Shown piece after piece: positions 37,907 to 47,175 of a stretch of DNA of 51,275 nt. How positions within the stretch are numbered: position 1 is the stretch's first letter; each line of letters starts with the position of its first letter. Made by a program: the position numbers and the translations under genes. The notes under the pieces were generated by a model. The model had not been told where the DNA came from. It saw only the letters and a program-made list of their open reading frames with translations, and did no database searches. This DNA comes from a virus (taxonomy: Duplodnaviria; Caudoviricetes), in IMG/VR virus record IMGVR_UViG_3300048574_000532, positions 1 through 51,275 of that record; one strand, 5' to 3'.

Positions 37907-38917
37907 ATGGCGCTTACGGGTCAATTCACGCTTCCCGCCGCGCTTGCGGCCGAGGAGGAACGACGCCGCGCATCGATGTTGGCGTCGCCTGCTCTTCCCG
38001 CGGTCCCGACGCCCGCCCAGGCGGCCCCCGGCGCGCCGCAGGCCGACCCGAATTACTGGAAGGCCAACCTCGCGATGGGGCTCGCGGGCCGTGCGGCGGA
38101 ATTGCTTGGGGGGTCTGCCGGACCGAAACCCATCTCGCTTCCCCCGGGCGCGATGCTTGGCATGGAAGGGCTGCGGACCCTCTACGGAATTCAGCGAGGC
38201 GAGCGCGATGCGCAAACCGCATGGCAGATGCATCAACAGCAACGCGAGGACGCGGCCCGGCGCGAGGCGACGGTTAACGCACGCGAAGACCGGGACTTCG
38301 GGTTTCGCCAACAGGCGCGCAACGACGATGTGGCTTGGCGAGGCTACGAGGCGCAAAACCGCAACGCCTGGAGCACCGCCGAGTGGAACCGCAACAACCT
38401 GTTCCACGGCGACCAGATGGACCTTGCCCAAAGCGAACAGCAGGCGAACAAGGACTACCGCAAAGAATCCCTCATGCAAGGCTGGGAAGGGCTCAAGCTC
38501 GAAAAGGAGAAGCTCGCAAAGTATCTCGCCTCGGGTGGAAGCGGCGGGGGCGCTTCGGGTGGTTCTTTGAGCGGCGCCAAGCTCGATGCCATTGCGAGCT
38601 ACATGCAGTCGCAAGGCTACACCGACGACCAGATCAACGGCGTCATCGGCCCCATGATCGAGCAGTCCATCGGCGTGAAGCTCCCCGCAAAGCCCCAAGC
38701 TCCGAAAGAGGAAGTTGCAGAAACGGCCAACGAAGCCGTGGCAAGCCGCGATTGGCGGGATTGGATGGGCCTTGCCCATGATTTGCCGCTCACGCAAAGC
38801 CCTGACGGCAAGCAGCTAATCGACCGCACGAAACTCGTGAAGGGACGCAAGTACCAGACGCAAGGGGGTATCGCGACGTTCGACGGGCAAGACCTGTGGC
38901 TGGAGGGGATGAAGTAA
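37907..38917 (+). CDS. Internal virion/ejection protein
   Basis: Q/R/E-rich helical region, Gly linker, small C-terminal domain. Confidence 0.55.
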   Translation: MALTGQFTLPAALAAEEERRRASMLASPALPAVPTPAQAAPGAPQADPNYWKANLAMGLAGRAAELLGGSAGPKPISLPPGAMLGMEGLRTLYGIQRGERDAQTAWQMHQQQREDAARREATVNAREDRDFGFRQQARNDDVAWRGYEAQNRNAWSTAEWNRNNLFHGDQMDLAQSEQQANKDYRKESLMQGWEGLKLEKEKLAKYLASGGSGGGASGGSLSGAKLDAIASYMQSQGYTDDQINGVIGPMIEQSIGVKLPAKPQAPKEEVAETANEAVASRDWRDWMGLAHDLPLTQSPDGKQLIDRTKLVKGRKYQTQGGIATFDGQDLWLEGMK

Positions 38918-38919
38918 CC

Positions 38920-41900
38920 ATGCCGGAACGCAAGAGACTCGACCTCGACGATCCCGCGCTCGTGCCGCAGGCAGCGCCCAAGTCAAACCGCATCAAACTC
39001 AACCTCGACGACTTGAGCATCCTGCCCAAGGACGTGCCGTTCGGCGAGGGCGTTTCCACTTCACTAGCCACAAACGCGGACGCGGCCCTTGAAGGGCTTG
39101 CCGGTACCGCGCAGCGAGGCATGCGCGCCGTACGGCTCGATCCGATGGGCACGCTCTTGAGCCGCACCGGCCCCGGATTCTTCCTCATGGACCGCGAGCA
39201 GCGCATGAACGAACGCGCAGAGGCGGACAATCCGGCGCAAGACAATTGGCTGGAAGGCCTCATGCGGGGCGCGGAGAACTGGCTCGCGGAAACCGCCCAC
39301 GGCGCCCGTACGGATGCCGCAGAACGCCAGCAGGCCCTTGCCGAGCAGTACCCCGAAATGCGCGGTGCAATGTTCGACGGATGGAAGCCGGATGTGAACG
39401 TGCTCTTGAACCCCGAGCGCATGCTCATCGAAGGTCTTGGACAAACGGTTCATTATGCACCGTCGCTGGCTGCGGCCCTCTTGACCAAGAGTCTTCCCCT
39501 CGGCTTGCCGGGAAAGGCGGCGGACGTGGCGGCGGGTCTCGCGGGAGGGTATGCCTCGGGCCTGGAAACGGGCGGACAGGTCTACCGCGACAACATCGAG
39601 CAAGGCATGCCCGAGGGCACGGCACAGGCCAACGCGCGACTCATGGAAGGGGTAACGACGGCCCTGAGCGCCTTGCCTTTCGAGCGCATCGTGGGCGAAG
39701 AACTCGCACCCGGCCTTGCCAACCTCGGGCGCAACGCCCTCAAGGTGGCCGGCACCGGGGCAATTGAGGCGGGCAGCGAAACCCTCGAAGAGTACACCCA
39801 AGGCATTCTCTCGGGCCTCACGTCGCACGAGGCACTCGGGCAAGCGCTGTCCGCCGGCGCCATGGCCGGACCCACGGCGAGCGCGGCGCATCTCGCCTTT
39901 CAGAGTCCGGGCATGTTCGGCCCGAGCGAGGCGCCCGAGGCATCGCCCACGGAAGCGCCTGCAACGCCGCAACCGAGCGATAATTGGCAACGGGCGGAGC
40001 AACTGGCCGCGTTGCAGAACAAGGGCAAGGCAGAGGGCTTGAGTCCCGAAGAGGCGACGCTCATGCGCAGCCTCGCGCAGAGCATCGACACCGAGGCCCT
40101 TGCCAACGAACTCGCGGCTATTCAGGCGGCGCCTAGTCCGACGCCCGCGGAAGGCGCACAGAATGCCCCAGGAGCGCCCCACGCTCAGAGCCCTGCTGAG
40201 GCATCAAACACTCAGTCGTCGCCCGTGGAGCCCGTCGCCGCAGCCCTGGCGCAGGACACCGAGGCCAACAAGGAACTTGTCCAGGCGCTCATCGGCACGA
40301 CCGATAACCTCGCCCGTACCGTAAGCGCTTTGACCGAAGCCCCCATGGCACCCGAACCCGAGGTGTCGGGCATCGCTCAGTCCACCGAGACCGCGCCCGC
40401 CCCCAAGGCTCCGAATCCCACACTCACCGGATCGAATCGGCTAAGGCGCCTTGCGGAGTATCGAGCGCAACGTGAAGCCGCTTCCGTGGAGACGGCAGAA
40501 AAGCCCGAGGCACCGGCAGCGCAGACTCCACTCGACCCTGAGGAAGCCATCTTCAACCCCATTGACCGTGCGGCTCCTCAAGAGGAAAAGGTGCGCCAAC
40601 TAAACGCGCTCACCGAGGTCAACAAGCCGCGAATCGATCAAGTCATAGGGGAGATCGACAAGGCGCTCGGCACGAAATCGAAATCCAGCATCAAAGAGCC
40701 GCAGAAGATCCTCAACAAGGCCAATCGCCCGAGCATCAAGGCAAGAAAGCCGTGGCACGATGTGGAACACGTGCGGGACTCGCTGCGCTTCAAGACGGTC
40801 ATCAACAGCTTTGAGGACGTGTCGGCCGCGTTCGATATCATCCACAAACGCCTGGGCGCCGAGGTGGTGAAGACCGACACCGAGAAGATGCTGGCACCGA
40901 AAGAGTGGGGATGGCGATTTGCGGCGTTCGACCTTCGAATGCCGAACGGACAGCTTGTGGAATGGTACTTGCCCCTGCGAGAGCTCGAAGAGGCGAAGAA
41001 GGCAGGGAACCACGACTTGTTCGAGAAGTGGCGTGAAACGACAGACGAGGAGCGGACGGCCCGTTGGAACGAGTACCGCACGGATCTTCGAGCGAGCCGA
41101 CGACGCTATGAGGGCGCCTGGCGGGCGGCTCTGGCTCGGTTGTCGCAGGACGAAAGCGCAGCGGCGGCTTCCTGGAAGAACTTGAGCACCTCCTTGGGAT
41201 CGGTCACGGGCTCGAATTCATCCTTGAGCTCGTCGGCCGAGAACGTGCCCCGACGCCAGACCCCGTCGATGCGGACGGCCGGGAACTCGGGCGCAAGTAC
41301 CATGACGCGGCCCGTGGATTTGTCGAAGGAGACTATTGCGTCATCGGGGGAGAAAACGGGGAATTCAGGGTCAAACATCGGTCAAACCTCCACAACTATT
41401 TTACCACAGTCGGATGCGCAGACAAAGGATGACCGCGACACGGAGGGCGGCGCGGCGGCGCCCGTGCGTCCGGTGGCTCCTTCCCCAACGCCCGACGCGG
41501 GAGAATCGGCCACTCTTACGCGGGATAATGCCGACGAGGAACAAATCCCACGGACTTCGGCCGTCCAGGGCCACGATACGGGCATTCTCGCGGAGGGGTT
41601 CAAGGGAGAGATCCCCGCACGGTATGCCGTGTTCGAGCTCCGCGATCTCACCGCATCCCACGACTTTTGGCGAGGCACGCCCGCTGCCAACAACGAGCAG
41701 CGCGGCACGTATCCCAAGAGGTTGCAGCCCCGCGATTACGGCCCCGGCACCGCGGAAGAGTCGAAGGTTGTGCGTTTTGCGCAGGAGCAGAAGTCGCCCT
41801 ACTACGTCTCTTCGCACCCTGGCGCCGACTCCGGTCCGCCCTCGGTTTCGCCCGACGGAACGGTGATTAACGGGAACGGCCGTGTGATGTCGCTCCAACT

Positions 41901-44900
41901 CGCGGCCGGCCGCAACGACTACGCCTGGATGCGCGAGGCCGTGCTGAACCAGGCCGAGACATTCGGGCTCGACCGGGCGGCCGTGGACGCGATGGAATTT
42001 CCCGCCCTCGTGCGCGTGGTGGACATGAACCCCACGAGCAAGGAAGCCCGTGAATTCGCGCGGGCGGGCAACGTGACGACGACGCAACAGCAGAGTCCCG
42101 CGCGCACGGCCGCGTCCTTGAGCGGGCTCATCGATGCCGAACTGCTCGACAGCCTGGACCTTTCTGACGACATCACCTTCTCCGAAGCGGTGAAAGGACC
42201 TGCGGGCGCCTCGTTCCGTCAAATCCTGTTCGAGGCGCTGCCCGCGTCCGTGCGGCCGAATTACTTCCGAGACGACCGAACCCTGACCGACACGGGCGCC
42301 GAGCTCGTGCAAAACATGCTCCTGTCGCACGTGTTCCCCGTCTCGCTAATCGAGCGGCTGAGCACGGCACGCCCAAGAATGAAACAAGTCATCGAGGGGG
42401 CATTGCCGCAACTCCTGAGCATTGTGCGCGACTACCCGGAAGGCGACATTACTCCCCAGTTGATCGAGGCCTTGGAGTTCCTGTCGCGCTACCCCGAGGT
42501 TCGCAAGCAGAGAGAGGTCAAGGCAATCCTCGGGCAACAGTCCATCTTCGGCGGAAGCGACGAAACCCTCTCTCCCGCGGGCGAGATGGTGACCGAGTTC
42601 CTGGTACGCGACGGGGACAAGCCCCGCGTGTTCCGGGAGCGGCTCGCCAAAGCCATTTCTGATTACGCATGGTCGCAGGGCCTGCTTGGTGAAGGCGGCG
42701 ATGCCCTCGACATCATCGTGGGCGCGCTCGACGTGCAGCCCAAGGAAGGCGCCGTATTCGGTCGCCCGGTAGCGCTCCTGGCCGCGGCAACCCCACGGCG
42801 CGCCGTTGACCGGACACGCGCCGTCACACCTTTGAATGAGGCGCGGCGGACGATTAACCAGGTCGTGTCCCGGCTCTCGCGGGGAAAGAACTTCAAGGTG
42901 CTGCGGACGATGGGCGAAGCGCCCGAGGAGGTGAGGCGGACGCTGTGGAAGCAGTTGCGTTCGGTGGAGGTGGGCGAGCGGCGGTATTTCGTGGCCGGAT
43001 TCTTCCACGAGGGCACGGCCTATTTCGTGGCCAACGACCTCGAAGCGCTCGCCGCGCAAGACGGGCTCTCTTTGGAGGCGATGGCGGTGGCGAAGTGGGC
43101 GCACGAGTACGGGCTCCACTACGGTCTGCGCGGGATGCTGGAGGAATTGCACGGGCCGGGTGGGCGTCTGGCGTTCAAGCGCCTCATGCGCGACGTGTTC
43201 GCGGCCGTGGGGCGGGAAGGCATTCTCGAAGCCGTTGGCGAAAGCTATGCCAACGCACCCAACGACGTGCTCGCCGAAGAGTACCTTGCCCATCTGGCCG
43301 AGCGCCTCGACAAGAACAGCAAGCTCACGGCGTCCGAGCGCACCGTTTGGAAAAGGGTGCTCGACTTCTTTCGCAACGCCTTGCGCCGAACCCTTGGGAA
43401 ACTGACCGACCGCGACATCGAGCGCGTGGTCTTGAACTCGCTCCGCTGGGCCATGAACCGTGGCGAAACGAACGGCACGCCCGACACGCGGTTCAGCCTC
43501 ACCTTCGGTCACGAGTTTCAGGACAAGCAAAAGGACCGCAGCGAGAATACCCTTGCCGCGCGTGATGCGGCCTTGCGGGTGTTCGACAAGGGCGGAAGTG
43601 TTATGGACGCGTGGCGAGCGGCCCGGCGCGCCGCACAGGAGGCCGATGCTCGCCCGTATTCCACCGAGGGAATCCGATTGGCCGGCGATCACGGCATGCG
43701 CCAAGCGGCCCGGCTTCGCGGCATCGATATCGAGGATAAGGCTTTCGGCGACGGCTGGAACAGCAAAGAACCCGCGAGCGCTTGGGATTCCGAGTCGAAG
43801 CAAGGTGCCATTTTCGCGGAACGCCCGTTGCCGAAGCTGAAATCCGCCCGAGGGCAGTGGAAGAAGTACGGCGAGCCGCGCTTCTCGATTGCCGAGGCGC
43901 GGCGCCAAACCGAGACTCCGGCCTTCAAGCGGTGGTTCGGGCAATCGAAGGTCGCGGCGGAGGACGGCGCGCCCCTTGTGGTCTATCACGGCACGGTCAA
44001 CGACTTCGCCCAGTACGACGAACGTCGCGGCAATGTCGAAAGCGACTGGGGCGCGGGATTCTACTTCTCAAACACGCCCGAGGACGTAAACGAGAACTAC
44101 GCGGGCGAAGGCCCCGACCTCACCAACAAGATTGAGCGGCTTGCAGAACGTATCGAGGCCGAAGAAGAAATCCCTTACGCGGAGGCCCGCGAGCGCGCCC
44201 GCGCGGAATTGTCCGAGGGCCGGGCGAATGTGATGCCGGTGTTTCTCTCCCTGCAAAACCCCTTCGAGGTGGGCGGCGAACGCCCGGAGTACTGGGAAAC
44301 CGAATACGACCCCGAGGACGAGGACGCCGAACCCACGGGCAAGGCCATCGACTTCCTGGAGGCGCTTCGGCACGTGGCTTACGGGTTTGATGACGTAAAT
44401 ACCGATACGCTCAGCGAGGACCTCTCCGAATATCTCTACGACGGCGGCAAGGCCGAAGATATGGTTGAAGCGGCGCGAAAGAGCGAGGGGCTTTCCTACG
44501 CCACGGACGAGCACGGCGATCTGGCCGGCCACGAAATCATCCGGCTCGCCCTGGAACGCATGGGCTACGACGGCATCATCGACCGAAGCGTCAACAAGAA
44601 ATTCGGATGGGAGAGCAAGCAGAAGCCCATGCTCGGCATGGCGCAGGACACCGTACACTACATCGCGTTTCGTGCGAACCAAATCAAGAGCGCCACGGGC
44701 AACACCGGGGCTTTCGACCCCACCAACCCCGATATCCGCTTCAGCGCCGAGACGCGCACGGGCGACCCCAATGTGGCGCCCGAGGCCGCGCGGCGCATCG
44801 AGGCGGGCGAGCTTGCCTCGGAACCCGGCAAGCGCGGCCTCGCAAACCCCTTGCCCGACATCGAGCACCTGCGTCAGGTCTACGACACGGTGCAAAGCGT

Positions 44901-47175
44901 GATGGATGAGCTCGGGATTCCGGGCGTGAAGAGGGTCAAGGACACCTATGCCGCGGCGGAAGAAATGGACCTTGCGCAGGTCCAAAGCCGGATGATGGAA
45001 CATGCCCGTAACGGCCGTACCTTCGAGACGGTCGAGGAAGCGGGGGCGGCCCGGCTCGTGTTGGAGCGGGAGTCTCCGAAACTCCTGAAAGAGAATCGCC
45101 TCGAAGAGCTCGCGAAGCTCATCGGCGCCTACAACGACACCGGCACCGAGGCGGCGCGTATCCTCGCCATTCGCCGGGAACAGCTCGACCTCGATACGCC
45201 CGAGGCGAAACGCTCGGCGCTTCTCGGCCAAATCTTCGAACCCTCGCGCCGGCTCAAGGCCGAACGGGACCGCCTGACCCGCCAAATCTCCCAGGAGAAG
45301 AATCCGGGGAAGCGGGCGGTGCTTTTGCGGCGCCGTGGCCTCGTTAACAAGCAGATGGCGAAGGAACTCGAAAGAGCCAAGGCGATTCTCGACCGCTACG
45401 GCATCGACCCCGAGCGCATCGAGGAAGCCAAGCCTGCCGTATTGCGCCGGGTCCTGCGGGATGTGGCGGCCTCGAAGCACACCTACTGGGATGCGCTCTT
45501 CGAGTGGCGCATGAACTGGGGACTGCTCTCGGGCGGGCGCTCCTTCGTGGTAGACCCGCTCTCGACGGGCATGCACGCCGCGTGGGACGCCACGGGAGAG
45601 CGCTTCGTGAAAGCGATGCTGAACCTCTTCGTGGGCGACCCGCTCTCCCCGCACCTGAACGAACTCGTGACGCAATGGCGGGGACTCGTACCGGGGCTCG
45701 CGGCAGGGTGGCGCAACGCTTTCCGCACCCTCGCAACCGAAGAGCCCACCCTGGCCGCAAGCAAGGGGCAAAAGAACCTCGGGGAGACCTTCAAGGACCG
45801 GCACGACGTGGCCATTTCCGGGCGCAAAGGCTACCTCGTGCGCCTGCCCTCGAACCTCAAGGCAGCGTCGGACGAGTTCATCAAGTCGGTTGTGGCGCAC
45901 ATGGACGTGTGGGCGCAGGCCGACCGCCTCGCGCGTCTGGAAGGCCTAAAGGGTGGCAAACGCACGCAACGTATTGCCGAGCTTGTAGGCGATGGACGCT
46001 CCCTCGCCTGGACACTCGCCCTCACACACGCCAACTACATCGCCTTCCAGGAGCCCTTGAAGAGCGAGGCGGGAAATAAGCTCATGGGCACTGTGCACGG
46101 CACGCCCTTGCGCTGGGCATTCCCCTTCGTGAAGACTCCCACCAACCTCGTGAAGCTCGGGCTCCGCAAGAGTCCACTCGGGATTCTCTCCCTCGTGCGC
46201 GAGCGGGGCAAACTCTCCACAGAAGAGAAGGTCGCCCGCACGGCTGAACAACTCATCGCGTGGGGCATGACGGTGGGCCTCATGGCCGCAATGAGCGGCG
46301 ACGAAGACGAACCGTGGATTACCGGCACCTCGTCCTGGACACCCGAAGAACGCAACAAGCGCGAAGCCGAGTACCGCTTCGCGGCTCCATACACCATCAA
46401 GCTCCCCGGCTACGGGCGGGTCGATTACTCCCGCCTCGAACCCTTCTCGACGGCCCTGGCCACGACGGTAGACGCCCTCGACAACTTCAAGCACAACGGC
46501 GCCGGCGTCGAAGCAGGCAACGAGTTCATGCACGACATGGTGGGACTCCTGAAGGACAAGCTCTTCCTACGAGGCATGAGCGACCTCATGGACCTCACGA
46601 TGGACGAACGGCGCCGCCCCAAGGTGGCCGCAGACTTCCTGAGCTCGTTCATCCCCAACCTCTACCAGCAAGCCGCCCTCGCCAGCGACCCCAACGTACG
46701 CGAGTTACAAGACGCCGGCCACGGCCGCTTCAAGGACCGCGTGATCTACTCGATGTTCCCGACCTCGCACATTCCCTATCCCAAAGTGGACGTGTGGGGT
46801 CGCGAAATCCGAAAGGGCGGCAACGCCCCCTGGCGCGCCGCCATGCCCATTAATCTCTACCCCGACCAACAAAGCGACCTCGAACACAAGCTCGACACCC
46901 TTATCCGCAAGTACAACGAGAATGCCCCACCTGAAAAGCAATGGTGGCCCTCACGCCCGCAACCCTTCTACACCAAAAACGGCGAAACCCATTATTGGAC
47001 AGACGAAGAGTATCACCGCCTGAGCGCACTGGCCGGGAAATACACCCTGGAAAGATTGCGCCGCACCCGCCTAGACTTGGACTCGCCCACAGGCAAGGAT
47101 ATCGAGCGCATCAAGACGGCGCTCGAAGAAGCAAGGGAGCGGGCACGCAAGGAGGTTCGGCGTGAAAAAGGGTAA
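38920..47175 (+). CDS. Giant polyvalent ejection-type protein: RelA/SpoT-like NTase, ddrB-ParB-like, zincin-like peptidase, ADP-ribosyltransferase-like and LPD38-like C-terminal domains
   Basis: ~40590-41120 SIK...VRDSLRF...GWR...VEW; ~41610-42090 YAVFEL.DL.ASHD...LQPRDY...GPP...INGNGR; ~43100 AHEYGLH...EEYLA; ~43915-44745 FKRWFG...VVYHGT...GFYFS...GYDGII...NQIKSATGNTGAFDP.NPDIRFS; C-terminal PFVKTPTN...DYSRLEPF. Confidence 0.82.
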   Translation: MPERKRLDLDDPALVPQAAPKSNRIKLNLDDLSILPKDVPFGEGVSTSLATNADAALEGLAGTAQRGMRAVRLDPMGTLLSRTGPGFFLMDREQRMNERAEADNPAQDNWLEGLMRGAENWLAETAHGARTDAAERQQALAEQYPEMRGAMFDGWKPDVNVLLNPERMLIEGLGQTVHYAPSLAAALLTKSLPLGLPGKAADVAAGLAGGYASGLETGGQVYRDNIEQGMPEGTAQANARLMEGVTTALSALPFERIVGEELAPGLANLGRNALKVAGTGAIEAGSETLEEYTQGILSGLTSHEALGQALSAGAMAGPTASAAHLAFQSPGMFGPSEAPEASPTEAPATPQPSDNWQRAEQLAALQNKGKAEGLSPEEATLMRSLAQSIDTEALANELAAIQAAPSPTPAEGAQNAPGAPHAQSPAEASNTQSSPVEPVAAALAQDTEANKELVQALIGTTDNLARTVSALTEAPMAPEPEVSGIAQSTETAPAPKAPNPTLTGSNRLRRLAEYRAQREAASVETAEKPEAPAAQTPLDPEEAIFNPIDRAAPQEEKVRQLNALTEVNKPRIDQVIGEIDKALGTKSKSSIKEPQKILNKANRPSIKARKPWHDVEHVRDSLRFKTVINSFEDVSAAFDIIHKRLGAEVVKTDTEKMLAPKEWGWRFAAFDLRMPNGQLVEWYLPLRELEEAKKAGNHDLFEKWRETTDEERTARWNEYRTDLRASRRRYEGAWRAALARLSQDESAAAASWKNLSTSLGSVTGSNSSLSSSAENVPRRQTPSMRTAGNSGASTMTRPVDLSKETIASSGEKTGNSGSNIGQTSTTILPQSDAQTKDDRDTEGGAAAPVRPVAPSPTPDAGESATLTRDNADEEQIPRTSAVQGHDTGILAEGFKGEIPARYAVFELRDLTASHDFWRGTPAANNEQRGTYPKRLQPRDYGPGTAEESKVVRFAQEQKSPYYVSSHPGADSGPPSVSPDGTVINGNGRVMSLQLAAGRNDYAWMREAVLNQAETFGLDRAAVDAMEFPALVRVVDMNPTSKEAREFARAGNVTTTQQQSPARTAASLSGLIDAELLDSLDLSDDITFSEAVKGPAGASFRQILFEALPASVRPNYFRDDRTLTDTGAELVQNMLLSHVFPVSLIERLSTARPRMKQVIEGALPQLLSIVRDYPEGDITPQLIEALEFLSRYPEVRKQREVKAILGQQSIFGGSDETLSPAGEMVTEFLVRDGDKPRVFRERLAKAISDYAWSQGLLGEGGDALDIIVGALDVQPKEGAVFGRPVALLAAATPRRAVDRTRAVTPLNEARRTINQVVSRLSRGKNFKVLRTMGEAPEEVRRTLWKQLRSVEVGERRYFVAGFFHEGTAYFVANDLEALAAQDGLSLEAMAVAKWAHEYGLHYGLRGMLEELHGPGGRLAFKRLMRDVFAAVGREGILEAVGESYANAPNDVLAEEYLAHLAERLDKNSKLTASERTVWKRVLDFFRNALRRTLGKLTDRDIERVVLNSLRWAMNRGETNGTPDTRFSLTFGHEFQDKQKDRSENTLAARDAALRVFDKGGSVMDAWRAARRAAQEADARPYSTEGIRLAGDHGMRQAARLRGIDIEDKAFGDGWNSKEPASAWDSESKQGAIFAERPLPKLKSARGQWKKYGEPRFSIAEARRQTETPAFKRWFGQSKVAAEDGAPLVVYHGTVNDFAQYDERRGNVESDWGAGFYFSNTPEDVNENYAGEGPDLTNKIERLAERIEAEEEIPYAEARERARAELSEGRANVMPVFLSLQNPFEVGGERPEYWETEYDPEDEDAEPTGKAIDFLEALRHVAYGFDDVNTDTLSEDLSEYLYDGGKAEDMVEAARKSEGLSYATDEHGDLAGHEIIRLALERMGYDGIIDRSVNKKFGWESKQKPMLGMAQDTVHYIAFRANQIKSATGNTGAFDPTNPDIRFSAETRTGDPNVAPEAARRIEAGELASEPGKRGLANPLPDIEHLRQVYDTVQSVMDELGIPGVKRVKDTYAAAEEMDLAQVQSRMMEHARNGRTFETVEEAGAARLVLERESPKLLKENRLEELAKLIGAYNDTGTEAARILAIRREQLDLDTPEAKRSALLGQIFEPSRRLKAERDRLTRQISQEKNPGKRAVLLRRRGLVNKQMAKELERAKAILDRYGIDPERIEEAKPAVLRRVLRDVAASKHTYWDALFEWRMNWGLLSGGRSFVVDPLSTGMHAAWDATGERFVKAMLNLFVGDPLSPHLNELVTQWRGLVPGLAAGWRNAFRTLATEEPTLAASKGQKNLGETFKDRHDVAISGRKGYLVRLPSNLKAASDEFIKSVVAHMDVWAQADRLARLEGLKGGKRTQRIAELVGDGRSLAWTLALTHANYIAFQEPLKSEAGNKLMGTVHGTPLRWAFPFVKTPTNLVKLGLRKSPLGILSLVRERGKLSTEEKVARTAEQLIAWGMTVGLMAAMSGDEDEPWITGTSSWTPEERNKREAEYRFAAPYTIKLPGYGRVDYSRLEPFSTALATTVDALDNFKHNGAGVEAGNEFMHDMVGLLKDKLFLRGMSDLMDLTMDERRRPKVAADFLSSFIPNLYQQAALASDPNVRELQDAGHGRFKDRVIYSMFPTSHIPYPKVDVWGREIRKGGNAPWRAAMPINLYPDQQSDLEHKLDTLIRKYNENAPPEKQWWPSRPQPFYTKNGETHYWTDEEYHRLSALAGKYTLERLRRTRLDLDSPTGKDIERIKTALEEARERARKEVRREKG
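41106..41378 (-). CDS. Nested antisense small protein inside the giant gene; candidate antitoxin/immunity protein for the RelA/SpoT-like domain
   Basis: ATG at 41378, GGAGGT RBS 7 nt upstream, own promoter, protein-like composition; the sense frame over the same bases is Ser-rich, like a shadow frame. Confidence 0.75.
   Translation of the reverse strand: MFDPEFPVFSPDDAIVSFDKSTGRVMVLAPEFPAVRIDGVWRRGTFSADELKDEFEPVTDPKEVLKFFQEAAAALSSCDNRARAARQAPS
41398..41425 (-). promoter_or_regulatory. Extended -10 sigma70-like promoter for the nested antisense gene
   Basis: Minus strand TTGTCT(41425-41420)-16 bp-TAAAAT(41403-41398) with TG at 41406-41405; a local AT-rich patch in a GC-rich gene. Confidence 0.65.

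Follow-up and report, generated by a model that had tools for sequence, protein, structure and literature searches.

The window analysed here, meaning the whole 51,275-base stretch of record IMGVR_UViG_3300048574_000532 (Duplodnaviria; Caudoviricetes), is a complete provirus record in IMG/VR. It contains a gene for a giant polyvalent internal-virion protein and, nested inside that gene on the opposite strand, a 90-codon open reading frame (ORF) that is almost certainly a gene in its own right and probably encodes an immunity protein for the domain specified beside it. The parts of the locus are as follows, with positions in nucleotides (nt) of the window and protein lengths in amino acids (aa).

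38896..47175, plus strand: giant polyvalent internal-virion protein gene, a 2759-aa ORF that holds all the other parts listed
40528..41220, plus strand: RelA/SpoT-like domain with a small alarmone synthetase (SAS) fold, sense aa 545 to about 775
41106..41378, minus strand: nested antisense gene for a candidate immunity protein, 90 aa plus stop, ATG start
41221..41440, plus strand: Ser/Thr-rich sense linker, the complement of the 5' two-thirds of the antisense gene and of its start region
41386..41391, minus strand: Shine-Dalgarno (SD) sequence GGAGGT, 7 nt before the ATG at 41378-41376
41398..41425, minus strand: predicted sigma-70-like promoter, TTGTCT, a 16-base spacer and TG-n-TAAAAT, with a predicted start near 41391

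The giant ORF is open across the whole region, and the minus-strand ORF, its ATG and the GGAGGT at 7 nt are all present as described in a first-pass annotation of this DNA. That annotation had also noted that the two frames share codon positions 1 and 2, and the coordinates bear this out: antisense positions 1 and 2 oppose sense positions 2 and 1, and position 3 of one frame falls on position 3 of the other. A promoter scan of the minus strand found one site, against 0.2 expected in shuffled sequence, and it is exactly the extended -10 and TTGTCT -35 proposed earlier (TTGTCT at 41425-41420, TAAAAT at 41403-41398, with a TG ahead of the latter). Its score was reached by none of 1000 synonymous resamples, and it is the sole signal in the window alone that stands above chance. 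With the sense codons of the window resampled synonymously, the probability of an open antisense frame is 0.80, of a start codon 0.79, of a 4-base SD 0.27 and of all three together 0.18. The antisense ORF of the window, taken alone, is within chance expectation, and its significance derives from its homologues. One earlier statement did not hold. The ORF was said to end where the RelA/SpoT-like domain ends, whereas its stop falls at sense aa 737/738 and the AlphaFold domain extends to about aa 772-778; the final ~35 antisense codons lie opposite the terminal sense helix of the domain, the last to be folded with confidence.

A search with sense aa 590-840 matched 124 giant proteins (E <= 0.001), each between 1.5 and 4.8 thousand residues long. 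Among the 120 of these 124 matches that were listed, the module lies anywhere from aa ~95 to aa ~4300, and the sense alignment of the giant relatives usually continues through the Ser-rich stretch. An alignment of 15 module sequences (A1) recovered 61 viral-contig loci, all matching the module profile, on contigs with a GC content of 0.39-0.70. These loci and the window make up the 62 sources considered below; locus L002, which lies on the same contig as L007, was left out, as were antisense stretches shorter than 60 aa. The wobble-coincident antisense frame is open at the aligned position in 60 of the 62 sources, giving 44 distinct products, and the remaining two hold the antisense ORF as a convergent gene, so that it is kept in 62 of 62. 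The 44 distinct copies are 66-90 aa long and start with ATG (37) or GTG (7), with 36 of the starts in a single alignment column. For statistical purposes 29 representatives at <45% codon identity were used, leaving out 15 of the 44 distinct sequences.

Start signals were compared with a null in which synonymous sense codons were resampled 2000 times according to each locus's own codon usage. A 4-base SD at -16 to -4 is found in 41 of the 44 distinct copies, against a null mean of 0.22, and GGAGG or AGGAG in 38 (null mean 0.084); the typical layout in the relatives is GGAGG, then 6-9 bases, then ATG. Among the 29 representatives, 27 have the 4-base form and 25 the 5-base form, with null products of 1.8e-21 and 3.5e-36. 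The product of null probabilities for openness of the antisense frame over the representatives is 6e-9, and the joint null for an open frame, a start and an SD averages 0.056 per sequence; the counts of open frames and starts are partly by construction, as the ORFs were defined from them, and the SD counts are not.

Promoter-like sites are less regular. In 7 of the 29 representatives, the window among them, a site placed equally far from the start, with the -10 ending 16-28 bases ahead of it, reaches p <= 0.05, and the signal over all representatives has a Wilcoxon p of 2.7e-4. The 'FALIEDG' subfamily lacks the site or shows it unclearly. Of the signals that the first-pass annotation attributed to the gene, then, the antisense frame and the ribosome binding site are kept among homologues, with the frame open, started, preceded by a ribosome site and constrained at the amino-acid level (see below), while the promoter-like site exceeds the null in just those seven. 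The sequences support a self-promoted antisense gene, the promoter being a predicted one, for the window's lineage and not for all lineages.

In two loci the sense frame is closed. The sense ORFs of L053 and L059 stop right after the domain, with five further stops in L059, and the antisense gene is intact in both, with SD and ATG (profile E 2.8e-15 and 1.3e-8). In these loci it runs convergently, its overlap limited to the 3' end of the gene for the domain; L053 has a further minus-strand ORF upstream of the antisense gene. Since the antisense gene stays intact where the sense frame is closed, it is independent of that frame. These two loci are free convergent pairs of the kind from which the first-pass annotation had imagined the nested form to be captured in frame. 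That direction, nested from convergent, is plausible for an arrangement that is not rooted.

Selection on the two frames was separated by sorting wobble positions into three classes: A, synonymous in the sense frame and setting the antisense amino acid; B, the reverse; and C, free in both frames. The measure used was purine/pyrimidine identity between representatives, leaving out codon boxes TA, TG and AT. In the overlap, identity is 0.725 for class A (bootstrap 0.65-0.80), 0.747 for class B (0.61-0.85) and 0.504 for class C (0.49-0.52); in the upstream control domain the corresponding values are 0.541, 0.968 and 0.546. Class A lies above class C in the overlap and not in the control, so antisense amino-acid selection is confined to the overlap. 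Single columns give the same picture. The final G of an antisense Trp codon is kept in 26 of 29 representatives, and the sense residue bearing that base varies among T, V, L, D and S. Leu is retained in two antisense columns by way of CTN as well as TTR codons, and the sense residue there flips among R, S, K and N; hydrophobic antisense columns oppose chemically mixed sense columns. By BLOSUM62 column scores, the antisense frame is favoured in 42 of the 66 overlap columns and the sense frame in 24 (p 0.05); in the 128 domain columns the sense frame is favoured in 108 and the antisense frame in 19.

The sense frame keeps a weaker constraint in the overlap than in the domain. Sense identity is 0.54 in the domain, 0.29 in the overlap and 0.165, which is background, just past the antisense start. 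It is nevertheless open in all 44 nested copies, against a null mean of 0.62 (product over the 29 representatives 1.3e-9). Because the sense frame is open beyond what this null allows, given the antisense protein, and the antisense evidence is as above, both frames must be maintained; the locus is an antisense overlapping, dual-coding pair with both frames open and purifying selection over the overlap.

The first-pass annotation had taken the sense translation here to be a Ser-rich shadow. This is apt for the two-thirds that form a disordered linker, and not for the first third, which is a structured helix, nor for one constrained Gln. The split in fold between helix and disordered linker explains part of the sense constraint in the overlap. 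Most of the class B signal in the linker comes from a single sense Gln column, opposite the antisense Trp, that is identical in 253 of 253 pairs. This Gln ('...RRQTPS...'; with the codon before it, window 41257-41262; columns 93/94) is encoded by CAR in 28 of 29 representatives, even though its third base is antisense-synonymous, and the same position reads His in L053, where the sense frame is closed. A sense-level role of Q-x-P-S, for example as a processing site, is possible.

The sense domain was recognised by its fold. AlphaFold2 models of the sense module, with 44 sequences, have a predicted local distance difference test (pLDDT) score of 92-98 over residues 1-228 (aa 545 to about 772), falling to <50 in the linker (model residues 229-296), which has the same alignment depth as the antisense product. 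The 5' two-thirds of the antisense gene face this disordered linker and the 3' third faces the last domain helix. In Foldseek searches of the PDB the domain has 69 matches at E <= 0.001, among them RelP (6ewz, E 2.1e-7, template modelling (TM) score by target 0.63), SAS1 (5ded), an exported Streptomyces SAS (8vx3), Tas1 (6ox6_A, E 6.8e-6) and CapRel (7ztb, E 2.4e-5), with probability 1.00, as well as SAS2 (6fgk, TM by target 0.71). The earlier assignment of the adjacent domain to the RelA/SpoT type is thereby upheld at the level of fold. Its invariant residues include K56, K64, R67, D84, R87, G128, R130, D135, E145 and Y147, which may correspond, tentatively, to the Rel motifs RxKxxxS, DxxGxR, GYRSxH and ExQ.

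The antisense product is modelled with lower confidence (44 sequences, mean pLDDT 71.7, core 75-83) as two hairpins, comprising four strands in all, plus one short and one long helix. When it was co-folded with domain residues 1-232, ipSAE was 0.84 in three runs, as compared with 0.27 for the best of three controls; as calibration, 58 solved complexes out of 80 attained the mark used, as did 2 mismatched pairs out of 110, and these figures hold here only approximately, the alignments being self-made. Contacts agree by >=98% between runs, and the partner's pLDDT is >=82. On the domain side the interface consists of residues 67, 69, 123-129, 165 and 168-169, including the invariant R67, P124, G128, F165 and R169; on the side of the small protein it is residues 43-57, its most conserved stretch. 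The models support predicted binding in which the small protein sits on the conserved cleft of the domain.

Searched alone, the 90-aa protein of the window is nearly an orphan. A protein homologue search returned one match, an identical 65-aa fragment on a 923-base contig; tblastn against GenBank phages, a scan of viral contigs and Pfam gave nothing, and a feature search of the ESM Atlas gave no usable match. For the sense module, too, tblastn gave no match among 50,697 GenBank phage records and 72,556 PLSDB plasmids, and blastn of its region against phages gave none either. So far the module is known from metagenomic viral contigs and proviruses only.

A profile of the 44 products (A2) reaches much further. 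Among 1.84 billion representative proteins it matches 275 clusters at E <= 0.001, 35 of them at <=1e-10; most are 65-100 aa long and match end to end. Some (P0003, P0125 and P0126 at least) are the nested ORFs themselves, called on short contigs and identical or nearly identical to nested copies. Others are multi-domain proteins: P0124 has four tandem copies of the small-protein domain, P0130, P0144, P0199 and P0262 have two copies each, and P0144, P0199, P0211 and P0256 share an extra C-terminal domain behind one or two copies. Other tails are fused to the domain in P0250 and P0252. The region after the single copy in P0250 (258 aa) may resemble an S-adenosylmethionine-dependent DNA methyltransferase; Pfam has no match to it at E <= 0.001. 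In P0186 one copy is joined to an HD domain (Pfam HD_4, E 1.3e-5) that matches PDB entry 7smg, '(p)ppApp hydrolase', at E 5.4e-41 and Rel hydrolase domains at 1e-11. A structure search of the ESM Atlas also yielded, as a lead only, an HD_4 cluster whose N-terminus resembles the small protein (TM 0.49). P0186 was not found in the viral contigs, and genome contigs have the hydrolase part only, at three loci. When longer family proteins were sought with the family alignment, there were none among 8000 candidates, which is weak evidence.

Efforts to name the family gave little. Pfam searches with 44 members gave scattered matches at E >= 0.0037, NCBIfam searches with 106 gave nothing meaningful, ten of the longer family matches had no Pfam family at E <= 0.001, and PDB sequence profiles of 44 and 106 members gave no naming match and no Tis1 chain at E <= 10. 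The extra C-terminal domain, also unnamed, is ~100 aa long. Fifteen metagenome loci (L067-L081) contain it alone, with neither the small-protein family nor the SAS module, and it also turns up in ESM Atlas clusters of hypothetical proteins ~100 aa long.

With this evidence in hand, we regard it as close to certain that the antisense gene is real and the locus truly dual coding. If there were no antisense gene, and the ORF were no more than the shadow that a conserved, Ser-rich stretch of sense sequence casts in a GC-rich genome, or the result of an invertible piece of DNA, its presence in the window alone would be no surprise given the chance expectation there, the more so as only sense codons for Tyr, His or Gln can give rise to stops in the wobble-coincident antisense frame; some constraint is also retained in the sense frame. 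Such a shadow would not, however, be expected to retain ORF, start and SD down to a GC content of 0.39 with so low a joint null per sequence, to show a class A signal that is missing from the control domain, to persist where the sense frame is closed or to have a domain carried by independent proteins, and sense conservation is already at background right beyond the antisense start. The null test, the wobble classes and the closed-sense loci largely refute this explanation, which is now barely credible. The idea of an invertible segment was set aside, the flanking inverted repeats being weak and imperfect only. Scarcely better is the possibility that the antisense transcript is what matters, by antisense control of the late giant gene or transcriptional interference with it, and that translation is incidental. 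The promoter-like site does face into the giant gene, but this very improbable account leaves unexplained the conserved SD and start codon, the amino-acid-specific wobble constraint, with Trp and Leu kept across codon families, the homologous domains in multi-domain proteins and the confident fold, and there is no Rfam match at E <= 1.

What the gene product does is a question of a different order. The antisense product is probably the immunity partner of the adjacent SAS-fold domain, a reading that derives from the invariable linkage of the two, the co-fold and the hydrolase fusion, and that accords with the candidate toxin-immunity pair of the first-pass annotation, which came through every attempt at refutation that could be made by computation. 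In the proposed mechanism, the 66-90 aa alpha/beta protein would bind the adjacent RelA/SpoT-like pyrophosphokinase domain and block its conserved substrate cleft, acting as structural immunity (an antitoxin) against an effector domain that would be toxic and be delivered as part of the virion protein. With a ribosome site of its own, and in the lineage of the window a predicted promoter as well, the gene could be expressed separately from the late structural operon, so that the antidote would be available to a lysogen or a producing cell. Immunity might thus be expressed from a silent prophage, and the inhibitor stripped off when the virion protein unfolds for ejection. The sense frame over the antisense gene would serve as a disordered Ser/Thr-rich linker joining the domain to those downstream, so that one stretch of DNA would supply the last helix of the toxin, the inter-domain linker, the antidote, and the antidote's ribosome site and promoter. 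Toxin domain and immunity gene may move between polyvalent proteins as one DNA cassette. We infer toxicity, neutralisation, expression timing and substrate alike; as to the substrate, we lean towards (p)ppApp synthesis rather than tRNA pyrophosphorylation. The full proposal is of an obligate dual-coding toxin-immunity cassette in polyvalent virion proteins, with an undescribed small immunity family encoded antisense in the toxin-bearing ORF, moving among >100 lineages, with immunity expressed by the prophage and the toxin freed on unfolding at ejection, and we put its probability at roughly 55%.

Several observations weigh against that proposal. By sequence, the domain itself is hard to place: the giant protein has no Pfam RelA_SpoT match at E <= 0.1, and a PDB search with the 44-sequence domain profile returned neither Rel nor SAS chains at E <= 1. 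For the antisense model, Foldseek gave no match at E <= 0.001 in the PDB or BFVD. In a VIA-align comparison with 48,161 chains, its best Z-score is 4.2, and Tis1 (6ox6_B) comes fifth with Z 3.4 and a root-mean-square deviation of 3.1 A over 55 residues, within noise. The co-fold score is the model's own confidence, obtained from self-made alignments, and the hydrolase fusion is seen in one cluster and one ESM Atlas row (TM 0.49). Promoter-like sites stand above the null in 7 of 29 representatives only, and a scan for a terminator-like site at the antisense gene found none. The class B value of 0.747 indicates sense-frame constraint in the overlap too, and part of the conservation there is sense-driven, above all over the last domain helix.

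Another possibility is a genuine gene whose product attaches to the domain yet is no antidote: it might be a chaperone or packaging adaptor for the giant protein, an allosteric regulator of a non-toxic enzyme, or an anti-defence or regulatory protein that acts independently and only happens to share the DNA. The evidence for a genuine gene counts just as much for this view, and fusions of the family to unrelated regions (P0144, P0199, P0211 and P0256; P0250 and P0252) suit a general binding module. We nevertheless consider this unlikely, as the gene always adjoins this one domain and is never apart from it in the 62 sources, the co-fold places the protein on invariant cleft residues and not on a peripheral surface, and one relative carries a fused (p)ppApp-hydrolase-like enzyme, as would suit the neutralising of an alarmone-type toxin.

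The immunity reading has close parallels. In temperate phages, MuF-Apk2 toxins make (p)ppApp and are followed by a gene for a Tis1-like binding immunity protein, with an Aph1 hydrolase immunity gene variably present (PMC10083569, PMC12226406). As in Tas1-Tis1, MuF-Apk2, BcTis1 and Aph1, a RelA/SpoT-fold domain is here borne on a phage-encoded multidomain protein; as with Tis1-type immunity proteins, which occlude the active site, a small structured protein is modelled on the domain's cleft; and as with the second immunity provided by Aph1, one member of the small-protein family is fused to an Aph1-like hydrolase. The linkage expected of Tis1-like immunity is found in all 62 sources, with the small gene nested in the toxin-domain coding sequence or overlapping its 3' end. 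The differences are equally plain. In the accounts of Tas1-Tis1 and MuF-Apk2 cited here, the immunity genes are separate, downstream and on the same strand, unlike the antisense genes described here, nested or 3'-overlapping. The small protein has no sequence similarity to Tis1, only the structural Z of 3.4, and the carrier is a polyvalent internal-virion protein and not a MuF or PAAR protein.

Toxic SAS (toxSAS) systems offer a second comparison. Their antitoxin domains block the donor or the acceptor site, acceptor-site blockers and Tis1-like domains being paired with (pp)pApp makers, and some toxSAS are neutralised by alarmone hydrolases (PMC11782079). FaRel, FaRel2, PhRel and CapRel, with their pZFD, Tis1-like or SAH antitoxins, combine an SAS fold with a small structured partner, as here; those covered in that source are bicistronic same-strand operons or, in CapRel, a cis fusion, and none is described there as antisense and nested. 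The opposite-strand arrangement, nested or convergent, likewise sets this pair apart from type II toxin-antitoxin operons. It is shared with the immunity genes of pore-forming colicins, which are on the opposite strand with a promoter of their own (here a predicted one), making immunity independent of toxin induction. Colicin immunity genes lie beside the colicin coding sequence and not inside it, their products are membrane proteins, and they are not known to involve dual coding. For the ionophoric colicins, the location on the strand opposite the toxin gene and the separate promoter are described in PMC9517006.

Antisense overlapping genes are themselves on record, including ano, pop and others in enterohaemorrhagic Escherichia coli (EHEC), two long overlapping genes in Pseudomonas aeruginosa and asp of HIV-1. 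In all of these, as here, a protein gene is embedded antisense in another protein gene. They differ in being described as evolutionarily novel or narrowly distributed, in contrast to the at least 29 lineages represented here, with <45% codon identity and GC contents of 0.39-0.70, and the present gene also has free-domain relatives and a putative functional tie to its host gene. Iyer et al. (2017) reported RelA/SpoT domains in phage polyvalent proteins and MuF toxins, and the main text of that paper has no occurrence of 'antisense' or 'opposite strand' (PMC5512222). The domain described here is too divergent for Pfam models, and the passages of that paper on RelA/SpoT domains mention no immunity partner. 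In full-text searches of the literature, no immunity or antitoxin gene nested antisense in the ORF of its toxin was found, though paper supplements may list more immunity genes or domain architectures. Pairing a toxin with an immunity protein is an established principle; what is new is the architecture, along with the putative immunity family.

Protein genes that lie antisense within another protein gene tend to be young, narrow in distribution and contested, and standard gene callers discard them. The comparative signal here is unusually clean, comprising start codon and ribosome site, wobble constraint specific to one frame, persistence of the gene where the host frame is interrupted, and relatives that occur free, and makes the locus a strong test case for dual coding and a rare, well-supported example in which both DNA strands encode real proteins. 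The nested gene would be tied functionally to its host as toxin domain and probable antidote, which would explain why the two are inseparable. This suggests that giant proteins of phages and conjugative elements may bear toxic effector domains whose immunity genes are hidden on the other strand, and that there is a new immunity or inhibitor family for RelA/SpoT-type enzymes. It also suggests that annotation pipelines systematically miss such genes, the family having surfaced in databases largely as short ORFs.

Elsewhere in the giant protein, aa 905-1042 match Pfam ddrB-ParB (E 8.5e-14), aa 1689-1940 match ART-PolyVal (E 1.9e-19), and the C-terminal third (44002-47172, plus strand) matches PHROG 6651, 'internal virion protein', at E 3e-12. 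Its classification as polyvalent, with several unrelated effector domains on one polypeptide, and as virion-internal follows from these matches, and that to PHROG 6651 supports delivery with the virion. Precomputed Pfam domains in the giant relatives include LPD-type, N12 methylase and RadC domains and others. Further nested genes with GGAGG and ATG were sought in the giant gene, and none had a protein-like product; in the prophage, a search for an alarmone hydrolase found no HD_4 match. The giant gene does contain long minus-strand ORFs of 303-610 aa, among them four of 309-610 aa with products that look Arg/Ser-rich:

39064-40182, minus strand
41401-42330, minus strand
42346-43989, minus strand
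44068-45900, minus strand

All are in the other, codon-aligned antisense frame and look like typical GC-rich shadows, in agreement with the earlier remark that antisense frames elsewhere in the gene are shadow-like. The ORFs upstream of the giant gene have weak PHROG matches only (virion structural protein, tape measure).

Two of the giant relatives depart from the common pattern. P0107 (3088 aa) is the sole relative seen with an unrelated Lys-rich sequence after the SAS-like domain in place of the Ser-rich stretch and, judging from this, is possibly a copy without the antisense gene. In P0005 (1865 aa) the SAS-like module is matched twice, at aa 800-985 and aa 1039-1294, which may reflect a tandem duplication of the cassette.

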